From the IMG/VR virus record IMGVR_UViG_3300009702_000038, positions 1 to 44,406 of that record: a stretch of DNA of 44,406 nucleotides; one strand, given 5' to 3'. This DNA comes from a virus. The notes beneath the pieces were generated by a model. It made no database searches and had not been told where the DNA came from. It saw nothing but the letters and a program-made list of their open reading frames with translations. Shown in pieces: positions 17,710 through 41,205 of this stretch (the first letter of the stretch is position 1; every line of letters begins with the position of its first letter). Made by a program: the position numbers and the translations under genes.

Positions 17710-17770
17710 CTGTGCCAGAGGGCTTGCGGCTGATTCACCCCATATCTGTTCAAGATTTGTAACTTGCTAC

Positions 17771-17799
17771 AAAAACACCCTATTTTAGGGGGTAGGGTG
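17771..17799 (-). terminator. Intrinsic terminator-like hairpin (minus strand) 62 nt upstream of the late block
   Basis: Read on the minus strand: CACCCTA-N10-TAGGGTG followed by TTTTTG. Confidence 0.5.
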
Positions 17800-18318
17800 C
17801 CAAAATCGTCAGCCGTGGTCCCTCTGTTCAGACGACCCCCTACTTCCTAGGCACTTCAATCCTGCAAGATAACCTAGACGTTGGTCGGAGGTGTATTAGT
17901 ATCGTCTAATGTCCCTCTTAGAGTAGTATCTCTATTCTATTAGGAGTACTTCTATACTAATAAAGATTCTCTAACTTCCCGTAACTACTAGTAAAGTTTA
18001 TCTTACTATTAGGGGACGGAAAAGGGGGCTCTTTGGTGTTGCTTGTGGTGTTGACGCCCTAAGTAACCCTTATGGTAAGTCACTTTTGGTTCTCAGGGGA
18101 GAGAGTGGGTTACTCGCTACCGCTCGTGTGCGATTCTTTACCAGTAGGGGGAACACCTACCCGTGGGGGGTTGTGCGATGGAAGTGTTGTCAAGGATAAT
18201 CGACTATTGAATGTCGTTTTCATAAAAAGTTGAGATATCCCTTGACATTGGGCGGGAAGGTGTGCTAGTCGGTGAGATAATCGTTGACTGGGGTGGGGAT
18301 TTATGCTATTAGACGCAG

Positions 18319-18346
18319 AAAAACCCCTTGTCGTAGTGACAAGAGG
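18319..18346 (-). terminator. Intrinsic terminator-like hairpin (minus strand)
   Basis: Read on the minus strand: CTTGTC-ACTAC-GACAAG, then GGGG, then TTTTT. Confidence 0.55.
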
Positions 18347-18513
18347 CTAAAGAATGGTGATTTGGGGGCGTTACACCCCCCTGAAACTATTAGCTTTTCC
18401 CTGTTGACTATCTCCCCACACTTTGCTAGCGAACCTGGGGAGTGAGAATCGGCTGCCACGAAGGCACGTAGTGACGTGGCCCTGGTGAAGGTCTATCAAG
18501 AGGACAATGGGCC

Positions 18514-18550
18514 GAAACAAAAGCCCCACACTTATTCAAAAGTGCAGGGC
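18514..18550 (-). terminator. Intrinsic terminator ending the early/middle minus-strand block
   Basis: Read on the minus strand: GCCCTGCACTT-TTGAAT-AAGTGTGGGGC (11 bp including two G-U pairs) followed by TTTTGTTTC. Lies about 130 nt after the last early ORF. Confidence 0.65.
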
Positions 18551-18682
18551 CTTCGTGTCGTTACGCCTAGCGCGTGTCGTCCGGTAGTGTCCACCATGCT
18601 ATGACGACTAAGAGCATGATGGCTGTGAAAAGGCTCAATCTAGTCCGCTCCCTCCTGTTCTGACGCTAGCTCGTTCATGACG

Positions 18683-18946
18683 TTACTCCCCGTCTTTCAA
18701 TGTGGCGGTTGCTTGCCAAGCTACGAAGTTGAGATTGCCCGCCAGTCGTTGCGCGTCCTGCGCTGAGAGTATCGCAAAGACACGAGTAGCGGCCTTTGGT
18801 AGTGGGTAGCGTTCTAGCGCTGCCTCGCGTGTGCCTCGTGGCCCCTCAATCTCTAGACATATGTGCCCAGGCTTCGTAGCGGCAACGGTGACAACGGAGT
18901 ACCACCCATCGGCGTCTTGGAATACTAGCTGTTCAAAATCTCTCAT
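18683..18946 (-). CDS. Hypothetical protein (87 aa)
   Basis: ORF coupled to the upstream gene by a 4-nt overlap. Confidence 0.6.
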   Translation of the reverse strand: MRDFEQLVFQDADGWYSVVTVAATKPGHICLEIEGPRGTREAALERYPLPKAATRVFAILSAQDAQRLAGNLNFVAWQATATLKDGE

Positions 18947-32223: not shown

Positions 32224-32249
32224 CAGACGACCAGGAGGGTGAAGCATGA
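32070..32249 (+). CDS. Alternative-frame small ORF (59 aa), not in the ORF track
   Basis: ...IPLGVYKTYRDGAAKANAWLKATSGSLRWEAERIYKPLTDDQEGEA. Its stop is in an ATGA overlap with the next gene (32246). Confidence 0.4.
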   Translation: MERGRGSKRHEESIPLGVYKTYRDGAAKANAWLKATSGSLRWEAERIYKPLTDDQEGEA

Positions 32250-32497
32250 GTGACCGCATCATATGTAACGATTTTGCCACAACAGAACCAGCAGCTCGTT
32301 GCTTCCGTCTAGTAGGAAGCTTCTTAGAAATCGTAGTCCGCCCGGAGCATCCTGAGTCTGAGGCGTGCCTTGTCTTGGAAGCAAGAAATCCCAACAATAG
32401 GGCAAGCCTGCCTATGATTATTTCTTTGTATGCTACGGAAGCCCGTGCTCTAGCGGGCGCTCTTGTGGCCTTGGCCGACGAGTGGAGCAATCAGTGA
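32246..32497 (+). CDS. Hypothetical protein (83 aa)
   Basis: ORF with a coupled start. Confidence 0.6.
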   Translation: MSDRIICNDFATTEPAARCFRLVGSFLEIVVRPEHPESEACLVLEARNPNNRASLPMIISLYATEARALAGALVALADEWSNQ

Positions 32498-32796
32498 ATG
32501 AGCGCCAAGTCAAACAAGCGGCCACTGCCGACACGCTTTGTTCTGTCACTGGCAAGCCTTGCCGTTGCCGGACTGGGAGTGGGTGCGGCGTTGTCGGTAC
32601 AAGGGTGGACGATTCTGCAACAGAGGCTCTACGATGGGCTCGAACGGCCCAACTCCGCCTCCTCGCGGCGGGGGACGCACTAGACCTCGCGGCAGACGCT
32701 CTCATTTTCGAGCGCCCTTACCCTGCCCCTGCGTTTCGAGACTTCCGCCGTCGCATCGACGCCCTTGTGAAAGAGCTAGAAGAGCTGACAAAATGA
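32494..32796 (+). CDS. Hypothetical protein (100 aa)
   Basis: GTG 32494 in a GTGA overlap (the track start is 32482). Its stop is in an ATGA overlap with the next gene, which supports this frame over the 32498..32683 ORF. Confidence 0.5.
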   Translation: MNERQVKQAATADTLCSVTGKPCRCRTGSGCGVVGTRVDDSATEALRWARTAQLRLLAAGDALDLAADALIFERPYPAPAFRDFRRRIDALVKELEELTK

Positions 32797-33026
32797 CTGT
32801 AATCAAAAACACCATAGGCCATGCCCGCAATCGGTCCCTTGTGCTAAAGGACTGCGCAGGAGACACACTAAGCGTGGAGTACAATGCAAGGCTATTCCGT
32901 GGCGTTGATATTGTGTGTGAGCAGGAGGGCAGTACGGGCGGGGTTGCTATTGTTGCCCTAGCGCCCGAAGATATTCGAGTCCTCGTCGAGGGCCTTGAAG
33001 TAATCTTGTCGGAAATCGAGGGCTAA
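32793..33026 (+). CDS. Hypothetical protein (77 aa)
   Basis: ATG 32793 (MTVIKNTIGH...) within the track ORF 32538..33026. Confidence 0.55.
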   Translation: MTVIKNTIGHARNRSLVLKDCAGDTLSVEYNARLFRGVDIVCEQEGSTGGVAIVALAPEDIRVLVEGLEVILSEIEG

Positions 33027-35440: not shown

Positions 35441-36190
35441 ATGAAAGCCGTAGTAGTAGGCGACCTTCACTTTCACCCCCGGTATGACAACAAGCGGGCC
35501 GACATCATTGGAGAGTTTGCAGCAGAGGAGCTGGCGACTGCTGGTGATGAGGGCTTCCTCATTCTCATCGGGGACGTGAGCGACTGCGTTGCCTTCAATG
35601 ACCACGGCACGAAGCTGGAGCTGGAAGGCGCTCGCTGGAAAGAGGACTGTGAGGTAACGCTCGACGGAATGCAGCGCATCATGGCGCCTTTCTACCGCCG
35701 CAAGCGCAAGCTGCCCCATCGCTTCGTCACGCTCGGGAACCACGAGAATCGCGTCAACCGATGGGTTGCACAAGAGCCACGGTTCGAGGGCATGATGAAC
35801 ATCGAGGACCTGGGCTTCAGCAAGGCAGGCTTCCAGACCTTTCCCTATGGTCACATGGTTCAGGTGGGCGGCGTCAACTTCGTCCACAACCTTGGCACGC
35901 AGACGGGAAGGGCCGCTCAGATAACGAGCCCCACGAATGGCATCAAGGCTATCGGCGTGAGCACCGTGGTGGGCCACTCACACAAGGCGAGCTACACGCC
36001 CATCCCTTTCCGTGACCGTTACATTCATGGCGTTGACGTGGGCTGTGCAACGCACGCCGACATGGGGTTCGGGGAAGGCTGGTCCCATCAAACTGCACAC
36101 CTGTACCGCCGCTGCGTGTGGGTGCTGGACAACATCAAAGACGGCGACTTCGACTTTCGCCAAGTCAGACTGGAGACCCTGGGAGCATGA
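35441..36190 (+). CDS. Calcineurin-like metallophosphoesterase (249 aa)
   Basis: Motifs GDLHF (DxH), LIGDVSD (GD), LGNHENR (GNHE), GHSH. Confidence 0.8.
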   Translation: MKAVVVGDLHFHPRYDNKRADIIGEFAAEELATAGDEGFLILIGDVSDCVAFNDHGTKLELEGARWKEDCEVTLDGMQRIMAPFYRRKRKLPHRFVTLGNHENRVNRWVAQEPRFEGMMNIEDLGFSKAGFQTFPYGHMVQVGGVNFVHNLGTQTGRAAQITSPTNGIKAIGVSTVVGHSHKASYTPIPFRDRYIHGVDVGCATHADMGFGEGWSHQTAHLYRRCVWVLDNIKDGDFDFRQVRLETLGA

Positions 36191-36726: not shown

Positions 36727-37128
36727 ATGACCTTGTACCGACACACCTGCCGTGCCTGCGGTCTCGACTGGGACGAAGAGTACGGGATGAACGACGACCC
36801 TCCTACCACCTGCCCGGAGTGTGGGAGCGAGGACATCTACCGCAACGTGACCACGAGCGGCGCCATCATATTCAAGGGCGGCGGCTGGTCGCCTCAAGGC
36901 TACAACAAGCACGGCTATCTCGACAAATACAAAGACCAAGGCGTGAAGGTCTACGACCGGAAAGAGGACCTGGACCGGGAGATGCGCGGCGAGGCTGAGG
37001 CTAACGAGCTGCGACGGCAAAAGCACCTGGACCGCGTGTCGAAGCGAGCCTTCGGCGCCGACGCGGGGGTGACGCAGGCTGAGGCGGACAAGGCCATCAA
37101 GAAGGCTGGCGAGGAGAGCGTCACGTGA
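36727..37128 (+). CDS. FmdB-type zinc-ribbon protein (133 aa)
   Basis: YRHTCRACG..W.....DDPPTTCPECGS is the FmdB/CxxC-CxxC ribbon pattern. Start ATG 36727. Confidence 0.6.
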   Translation: MTLYRHTCRACGLDWDEEYGMNDDPPTTCPECGSEDIYRNVTTSGAIIFKGGGWSPQGYNKHGYLDKYKDQGVKVYDRKEDLDREMRGEAEANELRRQKHLDRVSKRAFGADAGVTQAEADKAIKKAGEESVT

Positions 37129-37295
37129 AACACGACCCTACAGTAAGCTACGAGGAGCTGGCACAGGCAGTTATGAACTGGGTCTGTGCGCACAAAACAG
37201 GAAAGCGCTGGTACGAGATTCTATCTCAGAATGACCTTATCCTCCTAGACTACAAACTACGTAGTTTGGGCTACCGCATATCGGAGAACAAGTGA
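37125..37295 (+). CDS. Hypothetical small protein (56 aa), not in the ORF track
   Basis: GTG 37125 in a GTGA overlap. Manual translation: VKHDPTVSYEELAQAVMNWVCAHKTGKRWYEILSQNDLILLDYKLRSLGYRISENK. Confidence 0.45.
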   Translation: MKHDPTVSYEELAQAVMNWVCAHKTGKRWYEILSQNDLILLDYKLRSLGYRISENK

Positions 37296-37305
37296 GGAGG
37301 CGGCT

Positions 37306-37794
37306 ATCACTTTAGGCATCGCAGCGCGGTTCAAGGATGGCATCGTCATCGCGAGCGACCTGGCACTGTCCGGTAGTGGGGCGAAGCGTCATCTCGTAGA
37401 GGGGAAGTGGTTCCACGTTGACGATGGAATGGTCCTCTACGCTGGCACCCTCTACTACGCCCAGGAGATTCAGTTTGCTGAGGGCACGCTACGGGAAAGG
37501 CTGCGCACAGTCTACGAGGTCCACAAGGATGACGATGACAAGGATGACGCCGAGTTTCTTCTGGTAAACAAAGACATCTGGTACTACGAGAAAGAGGGCG
37601 CCTTCTACAGGCGGGGCGACTACGAGTGCATTGGTTCCGGGGCCGACATGGCGGACGGGCTGCTCGACCTCGTGTACTCCCCAGGACGTAGCAAGGCTTG
37701 GCTTCTCGCCCACCTGGCGAACATCTTCCGCATCGTCAACCGCAAGGTCGAAGGCGTGTCGGCGGAGTACAAGCATGCGGTGGTGCTCTCGTGA
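37306..37794 (+). CDS. HslV/proteasome-beta-like Ntn-hydrolase (about 162 aa) with a putative non-canonical ATC start
   Basis: (I/M)TLGIAARFKDGIVIASD... and ...YECIGSGADMADG match the proteasome-beta/HslV Thr1 and GSG motifs. GAGGAGG lies 5 nt upstream of ATC 37306. The first canonical start (ATG 37429) would delete the catalytic N-terminus. Confidence 0.6.
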   Translation: MTLGIAARFKDGIVIASDLALSGSGAKRHLVEGKWFHVDDGMVLYAGTLYYAQEIQFAEGTLRERLRTVYEVHKDDDDKDDAEFLLVNKDIWYYEKEGAFYRRGDYECIGSGADMADGLLDLVYSPGRSKAWLLAHLANIFRIVNRKVEGVSAEYKHAVVLS

Positions 37795-38027
37795 CGCCTG
37801 CTGAAAGCATGTTCAACCTGTTCGTGGTAACTGCCTTCCTGGGGTCGCTGGTTGACCATTGGTTTGTAGGGCACCGCCGCGTCATCATCCCGCTCCGCAC
37901 CTTCCTGCTCGGCTGCTTCATCTACACTGAGAGCTACCTCGCCGTGACCTCGGAACCGGCCATGTGGCTGTACGTGAGCCTGAACGTGTGGGGCCTGATT
38001 AGCATTTACGCTGGAACAAAGCGCTGA
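37791..38027 (+). CDS. Small membrane protein (72-78 aa)
   Basis: GTG 37791 in a GTGA overlap, or ATG 37809. MFNLFVVTAFLGSLVDHWF... Hydrophobic segments. Confidence 0.55.
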   Translation: MTPAESMFNLFVVTAFLGSLVDHWFVGHRRVIIPLRTFLLGCFIYTESYLAVTSEPAMWLYVSLNVWGLISIYAGTKR

Positions 38028-38263: not shown

Positions 38264-38448
38264 GACCACGCGCGGAGGATACCTACTACTGGCATAGTCT
38301 GACAGAGAAGGAACGGGCCGGGGAGAAGGGAAGGGACTTCAAGGCCTTTTACAAGGAATGGACGAAGGGAACAACGTCTAAGCGCTGCGGGTGGGCCACC
38401 GTATTGCACACACTTCAAAGTTTTTCTTCGAGAACGCGGCGTGGCTAA
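38260..38448 (+). CDS. Questionable small ORF (62 aa)
   Basis: ATGA-coupled start, but its last 71 nt overlap the convergent endolysin gene and the C-terminus looks off-frame. Confidence 0.3.
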   Translation: MRPRAEDTYYWHSLTEKERAGEKGRDFKAFYKEWTKGTTSKRCGWATVLHTLQSFSSRTRRG

Positions 38449-38848
38449 CGCTGTTGTGTTGATTCCCACCCCATCCCCAGATGAAGTTGTGGGTAAACTT
38501 GTCGAGAAACAGGACGTGGTAGCCTCCGCTCGCGCTGCCTGTCACGTTGGGGTCGTCCCCCTTCTTCCGATGGCGTAGCACGACGATAGCTCCACGCTTG
38601 GGGCGTGAGGCCTTCCCGTAGGTCTTGTACGAGGCTGCCCTAGCGTCCCTGGTTGAGGGGTAGCCTGCCGCCTCCAGGCAGTTGGACACGAACACGGCAC
38701 ACCAAGCCGTCTCGTCCCGGGACTTCCCCCACCGCCCGATGTTCAGCGCATAGCGCTTGAGCCATCCAAGGATGGTAGGGTTGTGAAGTTTGCCCGGAAT
38801 CTCTTTCAGGCCAACGTAGCTCTTGGCTATGGTCAGCCAGGGAGGCAT
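38378..38848 (-). CDS. Cys-His peptidase (CHAP/NlpC-P60-like, TIGR02594-type) cell-wall hydrolase, likely the endolysin (156 aa)
   Basis: YVGLKEIPG..HNP.I..W...ETAWCAVFVSNCLEAAG...GAIVVL...GYHVLFL matches the TIGR02594 pattern, with a catalytic Cys and His. Confidence 0.65.
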   Translation of the reverse strand: MPPWLTIAKSYVGLKEIPGKLHNPTILGWLKRYALNIGRWGKSRDETAWCAVFVSNCLEAAGYPSTRDARAASYKTYGKASRPKRGAIVVLRHRKKGDDPNVTGSASGGYHVLFLDKFTHNFIWGWGGNQHNSVSHAAFSKKNFEVCAIRWPTRSA

Positions 38849-40254: not shown

Positions 40255-40592
40255 TTTCTTCTCCACTTGCTGCGCTTCGCGACGACCACTGCGGGGACAT
40301 CGGGAAGGGATTGGACTACCTTGAACCACTCACAGGCGGCGGCGCGTTGGGCCTTGTGGCCCTTGGCTAGGTCGAGCGCGAGGGTCACTGCTCGGAGGCG
40401 CCCCACCTTTCCGCCCACTGCTGCACACTCGTCCCACGCATCCCACGTTGGGGCCTTGTCCATGCAGCCAGTCACCCAGACGGCAACCTGCTCGTCAATG
40501 AGGACTGTAGCGTGTGCCGCTTCTTCTACTGCGCGAGGCCAACAGGCACTAGCGAAGCAGAGCACGAATAGGAGACAGATGTACCGCGCCAT
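40248..40592 (-). CDS. Possible lipoprotein (114 aa)
   Basis: ATG 40592: MARYICLLFVLCFASAC-WPR (signal peptide plus a lipobox-like ASAC). Overlaps the protease 3' end by 44 nt. Confidence 0.5.
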   Translation of the reverse strand: MARYICLLFVLCFASACWPRAVEEAAHATVLIDEQVAVWVTGCMDKAPTWDAWDECAAVGGKVGRLRAVTLALDLAKGHKAQRAAACEWFKVVQSLPDVPAVVVAKRSKWRRKC

Positions 40593-41205
40593 TGATGTGT
40601 GTATCCTGGTAAGCGCCCGGGCACCCAAGAGCACAGTAGATGCCCTGGATGACTCCGAAACTGGTGATGCCCACGAGCCTGCCGTGCTTGTTCACCACGG
40701 GGCCGCCACTGTTTCCGCCCACGGTCCCCGCGTCATGCTGGAACCACACGCCACCAAAGACACCATCTTCCCGTTTCGGGTAGGACACGATGCCCTTCGT
40801 TACGCTGTACTCGTACTTGCCTAGCGCATGGCCGATTGCCCACACATCATCGCCCCAAGTGGGGGCCTTTCGTGCGAGGCGTATGCCACTACCTAGTGCG
40901 TGCCCATCGGCGGGAACGAGAACCGCAAGGTCATCTAGCTTGTCTGTTTTCCACACGGCGGCTTCCCATCGGTCCTCATGCGTCTTGACGAACACGGGGG
41001 TCCCGTCCTCGATGCAGTGGAACGCAGTGAGAACCTTATGGTCCACGATAACGCCTGAGCAAAAGGTGCGCCCGAAGAAGCCTTGCAACGCGACGGTAGC
41101 CTGTAGGGCCTTGCCCACGGTGTTGACGCGAGGCTTGGCCTTCGAGATTGCGGGGGTGGTGCAAGCCATCATGATGATGAGCACGGGGAGGAGTAGACGT
41201 TTCAT
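40549..41205 (-). CDS. Secreted (possibly lipidated) trypsin/chymotrypsin-fold S1 serine protease (218 aa)
   Basis: Signal peptide MKRLLLPVLIIMMAC. Catalytic triad contexts: TAFHC (His), DDLAVL (Asp), GGNSGGPV (Ser). Confidence 0.8.
   Translation of the reverse strand: MKRLLLPVLIIMMACTTPAISKAKPRVNTVGKALQATVALQGFFGRTFCSGVIVDHKVLTAFHCIEDGTPVFVKTHEDRWEAAVWKTDKLDDLAVLVPADGHALGSGIRLARKAPTWGDDVWAIGHALGKYEYSVTKGIVSYPKREDGVFGGVWFQHDAGTVGGNSGGPVVNKHGRLVGITSFGVIQGIYCALGCPGAYQDTHINGAVHLSPIRALLR

Follow-up and report, generated by a model that had tools for sequence, protein, structure and literature searches.

We describe a gene at positions 37306-37794 (+ strand) of the virus record IMGVR_UViG_3300009702_000038 from IMG/VR, whose complete stretch of 44,406 nucleotides (nt) was analysed and is called the window in the following. 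We consider it likely that these positions hold an intact, expressed gene, which encodes a 162-residue protein of the proteasome beta/HslV superfamily and is translated from an AUC start codon. As annotated, the gene is 41 residues too short and has lost the catalytic end of its product; the start is very probably the ATC at 37306-37308. What is new here is a small, undescribed subfamily, in which ATC or ATT start codons (abbreviated ATH) occur repeatedly and in which the start is consistently mis-annotated. ATH starts are unreported for phage proteasome homologues.

The reading frame in question lies between a TAG (37246-37248) and a TGA (37792-37794) on the + strand and contains no further stop. 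Among the 60 in-frame codons from 37249 to 37428 there is no ATG, GTG or TTG, which is why the mechanical list of open reading frames (ORFs) begins this frame only at ATG 37429, giving a product of 121 amino acids (aa). The public gene calls of JGI, ENA and Logan all yield the same 121-aa product (P0003). The first in-frame codon that is one base off ATG is ATC 37306; further upstream, neither a canonical nor a near-cognate start is found. At the junction, a Shine-Dalgarno-like GAGGAGG (37294-37300) is followed by a 5-nt spacer (CGGCT), by the ATC, at which decoding as formylmethionine (fMet) is expected, and by ACT (37309-37311), the codon of the predicted N-terminal nucleophile Thr1. The corrected coding sequence comprises 162 codons plus the TGA and specifies a compact protein of the N-terminal nucleophile (Ntn) type. 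The original prediction, which had been made from the letters of the DNA, described both the frame without a canonical start ahead of 37429 and the GAGGAGG placed 5 nt upstream of an ATC-Thr pair; the codon scan and the sequence bear it out on both counts. The Logan assembly SRR6056608 contains the same junction with the same ATC and was possibly built from the same reads.

The start used by the ORF list and the public calls, ATG 37429-37431 (Met42), is probably internal. Its residue is not conserved (residue 42 is a leucine in P0001 and L005), and directly before the codon there is only a GGA with zero spacer. A product beginning here would be without the strands within residues 3-38 of the AlphaFold2 model, i. 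e. five core strands, and without the whole catalytic triad, just as had been claimed when the annotated start was said to remove the catalytic N-terminus. The Shine-Dalgarno motif, in turn, is supportive only: as GGAGG is common throughout the window genome (57% GC), the motif is not decisive alone. The idea that a stronger Shine-Dalgarno sequence compensates for ATH starts was not adopted, as several ATG-starting relatives also possess GGAGG and the motif is common in the genome. The gene is preceded by an ORF of 56 aa (37125-37295, + strand), whose stop TGA (37293-37295) overlaps the Shine-Dalgarno sequence and which is 33% identical (E 2e-6) to a 56-aa ORF at the equivalent place in the related locus L004. 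In L004, a GGAGG is aligned at the same place, 4 nt ahead of the ATG; apart from this common motif, the junctions of the window and L004 differ by a 2-nt indel, an earlier stop of the upstream ORF, and the exchange of ATG for ATC.

In order to place the start, we rely mainly on the comparison with 24 related loci from metagenomes and IMG/VR (three loci from the IMG/VR scan and 15 from the JGI metagenome scan). In 21 of these, the Thr1 codon is directly preceded by an ATG, GTG or TTG, which in many cases forms an ATGA or GTGA overlap with the upstream stop; in the other three, which represent two further, distant lineages (L012; L010/L011), the start position is occupied by ATC or ATT. The proteins P0001 (82% identical to the window protein) and P0002 (about 78-79%) both open with MTLGIAAK where the window reads I-TLGIAAR. 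The observation is beyond chance, because the M-T-L-G-I-A-A-K of homologues with 82% and 78% identity has its first residue precisely where the ATC stands. On the DNA level, L001 reads GTG-ACT (GTGA overlap with the upstream stop) and L004 reads ATG-ACT; the upstream ORF and the protease start overlap as ATGA in both L004 and L005, the actual ATG-ACT start of the latter having been overlooked by the gene caller. In agreement with these findings, the start proposed originally at ATC 37306 has a homologous start position in every relative; this comparison makes initiation at the codon itself probable.

The two further ATH lineages present the opposite annotation error. L012 reads GGAAGGGGGATAGGCTA-ATC-ACG behind a purine-rich tract, the TAG of the upstream gene lying 4 nt before the ATC, and L010/L011, which stem from two different sequencing runs and five contigs, read GAGAGGGTAGGGCC-ATT-ACC, also behind a purine-rich tract. 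Gene callers extended the genes of L010 and L012 to a TTG located 14-16 codons upstream, which has little or no Shine-Dalgarno sequence. P0039 (L010:3001-3549) and P0034 (L012:2925-3488) are therefore probably 16 and 15 residues too long, their likely starts being ATT and ATC; this over-extension is the converse of the truncation seen in the window. Each ATH lineage is embedded in a group of relatives that start with ATG: P0039 shares 45% identity with one of these, P0035, and only 37% with P0034. The window protein is nested likewise, its identity to GTG- and ATG-starting proteins being 82% and about 78-79%. Going by these identities, ATG would have changed to ATH at least twice independently, and probably three times.

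Two further observations concern the N-terminus. Among the listed family proteins, the residue before Thr1 is methionine in 33 cases, valine in three (probably GTG starts), glycine in seven, and isoleucine in two plus the window protein. The members with a glycine carry genuine short propeptides of the form M..KTG|T, which match the classical Gly-1|Thr1 autoprocessing site of proteasome beta subunits. As the propeptides of the family end in glycine, an isoleucine at position -1 is more readily explained by a start codon than by a cleavage site. The ratio of nonsynonymous to synonymous substitutions (dN/dS) of codons 2-41 is 0.08 against L001 and 0.12 against L004, compared to 0.12 and 0.15 for the rest of the gene. 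Codons 2-41, which the annotation cuts off, are under purifying selection.

The propeptides deserve a note of their own. The relatives L031:6001-6510 and L032:107-661, which are 43-47% identical to the window protein, possess short N-terminal propeptides ending in K-T-G|T; the family thus has both a Met-aminopeptidase-type and an autoprocessing-type route to Thr1. Moreover, the called N-termini differ within a single 90%-identity cluster (MKAKTG in P0009, MGRWRV in P0048/P0049).

The structure of the 162-residue protein was modeled by means of AlphaFold2 on the basis of 25 family sequences. The model has a predicted local distance difference test score (pLDDT) of 92.6 and a predicted template modeling score (pTM) of 0.88, and shows the strands and the helices H1-H4 in the expected order. 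A Foldseek search of the PDB gave 1304 matches at E<=1e-3; the best 50 of these 1304 are all 20S subunits or Anbu, and the template modeling scores (TM-scores) of the listed best matches, normalised to the query, are 0.72-0.79. Structure prediction had been proposed along with the original prediction as a check on the fold, and AlphaFold2 and Foldseek indeed predict the four-layer alpha-beta-beta-alpha fold of an Ntn-hydrolase.

The catalytic residues were assessed in two alignments, namely A5, which has 21 members down to 23% identity, and the narrower A3. The only invariant columns of A5 are T2, D18, K34, G47 and G110 (initiator counted); by the superfamily definitions, these are Thr1, Asp17, Lys33, the oxyanion Gly47, and the first glycine of the GSG loop (PMC8665760). 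Position 2 of the A5 profile is aligned with residue 1 of the mature HslV and 20S beta chains. The equivalents of Asp17 (GAC, 37357-37359), Lys33 (AAG, 37405-37407) and Gly47 of the oxyanion hole (GGC, 37444-37446; role according to PMC8665760), all on the + strand, are invariant in A3 as well. In the GSG loop, which corresponds to Gly128-Ser129-Gly130 and is encoded by GGT TCC GGG (37633-37641, + strand), G110 is invariant and G112 nearly so; it is this segment that gives the best match of the window protein to 20S beta5. Helices are predicted by AlphaFold2 at residues 49-56 and 62-73, the latter being H2. It is followed, in the position of the "pore loop", by the acidic stretch KDDDDKDDAE (residues 74-83; 37525-37554, + strand), whose D80 is invariant in A3.

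These results support the membership of the window protein in the proteasome beta/HslV superfamily (peptidase T1, Ntn-hydrolases). The Pfam model PF00227 (Proteasome) scores 21.0 bits (E 2.9e-4) against a gathering threshold of 22.4 bits; many relatives at 43-48% identity have a precomputed PF00227 match, and PHROG 1040, "peptidase HslV family", matches the window protein with E 3.7e-7. Searched alone against PDB chains, the protein found 20S beta5 chains at E values of about 0.06-0.1, and pairwise phmmer of these chains gave no HslV at E<=10. The A5 profile matched HslV of Thermotoga maritima (1m4y, 1.4e-9), 20S beta chains (1.4e-9 to 5e-9) and the beta-proteobacteria proteasome homologue (BPH; 5ovu, 2.3e-7); with the A3 profile, only 20S beta chains were below 0.01. 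No HslV model was matched in an NCBIfam scan at E<=0.1, which returned only 20S beta models with 14 bits, far from their equivalog cutoffs (TIGR03690, 14.1 bits vs 191.9; TIGR03634, 13.6 bits vs 224). Judged by its sequence, the window protein lies about as far from HslV as from 20S beta, and it is not an HslV orthologue. The name given to it originally, an HslV/proteasome-beta-like hydrolase, thus stands for the superfamily (fold, Thr1, Asp17, Lys33, Gly47 and GSG loop) and falls for HslV itself. Because no HslV model matched and the 20S beta equivalogs score only 14 bits, we regard it as part of a separate small family within the superfamily.

The family is sparsely represented in the collections searched. 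Among 1.84 billion cluster representatives, 21 were found at E<=1e-3. In a collection of 5.8 billion sequences, the relatives that follow beyond the family, and the nearest cellular proteins, are annotated HslVs (E 4e-6 and weaker). Neither blastn (distant mode) nor tblastn gave a match in 50,697 GenBank phage records, so that no counterpart was found among these sequenced phage isolates. A scan of 185,579 representative prokaryotic genomes yielded no family member, no prophage copy and no clue to the host; its sole match, 31 residues in Oceanisphaera marina, lies in no + strand ORF and was rejected as spurious. BFVD holds 37 viral models with a similar fold at 9-18% identity. We conclude that this is an undescribed, syntenically conserved phage subfamily; of the known phage families, the comparison covered PPH, whose description sets the subfamily apart.

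The window protein combines features of several known systems. With HslV (ClpQ) it shares the compact size of about 165-175 aa without an H5 helix or C-terminal extension, the proposed direct Met-Thr start, at which Met removal would expose Thr1, and Asp17, Lys33 and the GSG loop; the T. maritima enzyme is the joint best PDB sequence match of the A5 profile. In contrast, no NCBIfam HslV model was matched, no HslU is among the Pfam hits of the window genome, and the loop after H2, which is very short in HslV (PMC8665760), is long and acidic here. The 20S beta subunits have in common with it the predicted fold (Foldseek E about 1e-10, TM-scores 0.72-0.76), the residues Thr1, Asp17, Lys33, Gly47 and Gly128 of the family, and, for some family members, short propeptides ending Gly|Thr. 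However, the window protein is about 40-60 residues shorter and has no propeptide, and the Pfam hits of its genome include no alpha subunit. BPH has no unfoldase and is the only homologue described with a long, highly acidic loop in this place (PMC8665760). An orphan without an associated unfoldase, a compact size and a highly acidic pore loop are thus common to both, which is a resemblance and no proof of membership; BPH is cellular rather than phage-borne, and its sequence match (5ovu, 2.3e-7) is weaker than those of HslV or 20S beta.

Phage-borne proteasome homologues were catalogued by Fuchs, Alva and Lupas in 2021 as PPH, AAH and CPH (PMC8665760). Like these and PHROG 1040, the protein is phage-encoded, compact, partner-less and uncharacterised. 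As PPH, AAH, CPH, PHROG 1040 and the BFVD models were already known, a partner-less phage protein of the proteasome type is not new as a category, and calling such a protease in a phage unusual, as the original prediction did, was an overstatement. PPH proteins have about 140 aa and no helix H2, whereas H2 is predicted at residues 62-73 of the window protein, which is 162 aa long; owing to these two differences, the family is not PPH. No experimental study of any phage proteasome homologue was found in the literature searched.

How the protein might come into being and act can be outlined on the basis of the junction, the homologous start position, the predicted fold, the conserved catalytic residues, the purifying selection on the N-terminus, and the lack of a Pfam-detectable AAA+ partner, which are directly supported; AUC initiation, Met removal, oligomerisation, peptidase activity and substrates we infer. 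Translation would start at AUC 37306, aided by the GAGGAGG 5 nt upstream, and ribosomes terminating at the UGA of the upstream ORF, 10 nt away, would probably contribute. The initiator tRNA would supply fMet, and deformylase and methionine aminopeptidase would remove the methionine. A Met ahead of Thr is a well-established substrate of methionine aminopeptidase, and HslV takes the same route. Thr1 would thus be exposed as the nucleophile and act with Asp17, Lys33 and the oxyanion hole of Gly47. By analogy with structurally characterised, ring-forming relatives, the protein probably forms stacked rings and thereby a self-compartmentalised peptidase, whose pore would be lined by the conserved acidic loop, as at the same position in structural relatives. 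This peptidase would act without a phage-encoded unfoldase and, as the gene ends the + strand replication operon, in the early/replication phase of the infection.

Owing to its weak start codon, the gene is probably expressed at a low level. In E. coli, AUC starts reach about 1-2% of the AUG level and give an N-terminal Met (bioRxiv 10.1101/063800), and IF3 counteracts initiation at non-canonical start codons (PMC2268962). The closest parallels are infC and pcnB of E. coli, which start with AUU: these too have a near-cognate AUH initiation codon, and their expression is low and sensitive to IF3 (10.1101/063800, PMC2268962). The window gene differs in its codon, AUC (AUU in one relative), in being a phage gene without a known regulatory loop, and in having a start inferred by comparison. 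That ATH starts recur suggests that low expression is tolerated or favoured. A further-reaching version, namely that the changes from ATG to ATH were selected as an IF3-sensitive throttle on an unfoldase-independent mini-proteasome, which has a BPH-like acidic chamber and degrades specific host or defence proteins early in infection, is a conjecture to which we assign little probability.

Several points weigh against our interpretation. The window protein stays just under the Pfam gathering score (21.0 vs 22.4 bits), and in some relatives N or H takes the place of Ser129 in the GSG loop. An in-frame TTG is present 14-16 codons upstream in both other ATH lineages, so that L012 and L010/L011 could be propeptide forms. 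AUC initiation is deduced by comparing sequences; AUC is a weak start in E. coli, and the translation preferences of the host may differ. We assume that rings form and are active in the absence of an activator. Proteasome-type subunits on their own are generally inactive, and we know of no demonstration of robust activity for Anbu or BPH. Connectase, a proteasome homologue, is a ligase rather than a protease (PMC8665760). Finally, a recent loss of the start codon is possible, as the ATC is a single G-to-C exchange away from ATG, only one genome is at hand, and its three assemblies may go back to the same reads.

This last point leads to the main alternative, in which the gene was recently inactivated: a point mutation from ATG to ATC would have ended full-length translation, the ORF having not yet decayed. 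The alignable junction of L004 with its common GGAGG, the one-base distance of ATC from ATG, the single genome of the window lineage and the low efficiency of AUC, which is only about 0.02-3% of that of AUG in E. coli, are all compatible with such an event. Yet the frame of 162 codons is intact, codons 2-41 have dN/dS values of 0.08-0.12, and the strong Shine-Dalgarno sequence is kept at ideal spacing; moreover, ATH occurs at the same position in two other lineages, which is hard to square with repeated fresh loss. We therefore hold inactivation to be rather improbable. Somewhat more weight, albeit still that of an unlikely possibility, is due to the idea that the protein is made and is not a self-sufficient protease, in that it docks on or poisons a host unfoldase such as HslU, or a host HslV ring, or acts as a connectase-like specific ligase or hydrolase. 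HslV is indeed a top sequence relative, a phage unfoldase is missing among the Pfam hits, and connectase illustrates that the fold can support ligation (PMC8665760). On the other hand, the window protein fails the curated HslV model, and its conserved acidic pore loop is like that of the unfoldase-less BPH and unlike the short loop of HslV.

Two other explanations concern the N-terminus alone. If the annotation were correct, ATG 37429 would start a non-catalytic 121-aa fragment with some other role. It is the first canonical start in the frame and was chosen by three pipelines, but residue 42 is a leucine in P0001 and L005, the codon has no properly spaced Shine-Dalgarno sequence, the five core strands together with Thr1, Asp17 and Lys33 would be lost, and the 41 upstream codons are conserved under purifying selection. 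This makes a start at ATG 37429 very unlikely. Alternatively, a programmed +1 frameshift between 37249 and 37292 could join the 56-aa ORF to the protease frame, and a propeptide of about 60 residues would be autocatalytically removed before Thr1. The two frames overlap by 44 nt, the upstream ORF ends in AAG-UGA beside a Shine-Dalgarno-like sequence, which is loosely reminiscent of prfB, and some relatives do have autoprocessed propeptides. However, there is no recognisable slippery site, and an AAG in the P-site is unable to re-pair in the +1 frame; residue -1 would be an isoleucine, whereas the propeptides of the family end in glycine; and in relatives there are two separate cistrons with 4-nt overlaps, the upstream ORF of the closest relative being unrelated and only 27 aa long. 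We rate this possibility as extremely improbable. Shifts by +1 or -1 out of the upstream ORF, and one from GTG 37292 via AGG-AGG, were rejected for lack of a slippery site, for wrong frame arithmetic, and on account of the separate cistrons in relatives.

With respect to its genomic context, the protease gene closes an early/replication block on the + strand, which comprises a DnaB-like helicase, a Metallophos protein (35441-36190), a zinc-ribbon protein (36727-37128) and the 56-aa ORF. Small ORFs follow, and beyond them convergent genes on the - strand, among these a weak CHAP-like protein (38378-38848), a Laminin_G_3 protein and a trypsin-like protease. As the same gene order recurs in distant family members, the protease belongs to the stable gene complement of this phage group. 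The search for a partner drew on the recorded Pfam hits of the genes called in the 44 kb genome, and distant partners invisible to Pfam could escape it. In this set there is no AAA+ or Clp-type unfoldase, no HslU, no second PF00227 gene and no alpha subunit; the absence of an HslU-like ATPase noted originally is thereby corroborated at this level. The only P-loop proteins among the hits are the DnaB-like helicase (DnaB_C/AAA_25) and the terminase. The hits further include DNA polymerase A, ERF, YqaJ, a sigma-70 region 2 protein, an S-AdoMet lyase of the anti-restriction type, and an SU10-type adaptor; an integrase is not among them. The lack of an integrase and of relatives in the 185,579 prokaryotic genomes is consistent with a virulent podovirus-like phage and does not prove it.

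Some further observations were made in the course of this analysis. A 72-aa ORF starting at ATG 37809 (window 37791-38027) is hydrophobic by eye and probably membrane-spanning, and may be a functional partner of the protease. A GTG at 37791 overlaps the protease stop as GTGA, but lies in a frame other than that of the called downstream gene; relatives also have a small ORF overlapping the protease stop or right after it. The trypsin-like serine protease mentioned above (218 aa, 40549-41205, - strand; Trypsin_2, E 4.9e-20) has small - strand genes as neighbours and is close to the Laminin_G_3 protein. In related contigs, it is kept in synteny with the proteasome homologue; hence, the phage group carries two unrelated proteases. 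About 970 nt between two - strand genes (17710-18683) contain no publicly called gene and no ORF longer than 53 aa. This region has no tRNA or Rfam match, as scans of the window gave none at all, and the sole repeat in it consists of two 15-nt copies spaced by 499 nt (18227, 18726). Candidates for its role are an origin or a promoter region, a so far uncharacterised RNA, and a gene that starts in an unusual way. A second gap in the public calls, of about 540 nt (32249-32793), is situated inside the + strand early region; a TTG-started ORF (32538-33026) has the same stop as a called 77-aa gene, whose start may be mis-assigned.

If our interpretation of 37306-37794 holds, it bears on annotation as well as on the biology of these phages. 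Gene callers restricted to ATG, GTG and TTG cut off the catalytic N-terminus in the window (P0003, 121 aa) and added false extensions to P0034 and P0039. Owing to this mis-calling of the start, an apparently active protease was filed as a hypothetical fragment without a Pfam hit. To our knowledge, annotated bacterial genes very rarely start with ATC or ATT. A small phage gene family in which three lineages carry one of these codons at the start would constitute a natural test case for weak starts that limit a potentially harmful enzyme. In addition, a distinct subfamily joins the phage proteasome homologues, and its 162-residue member offers a tractable target for studying which role a partner-less proteasome-type peptidase may play in infection.

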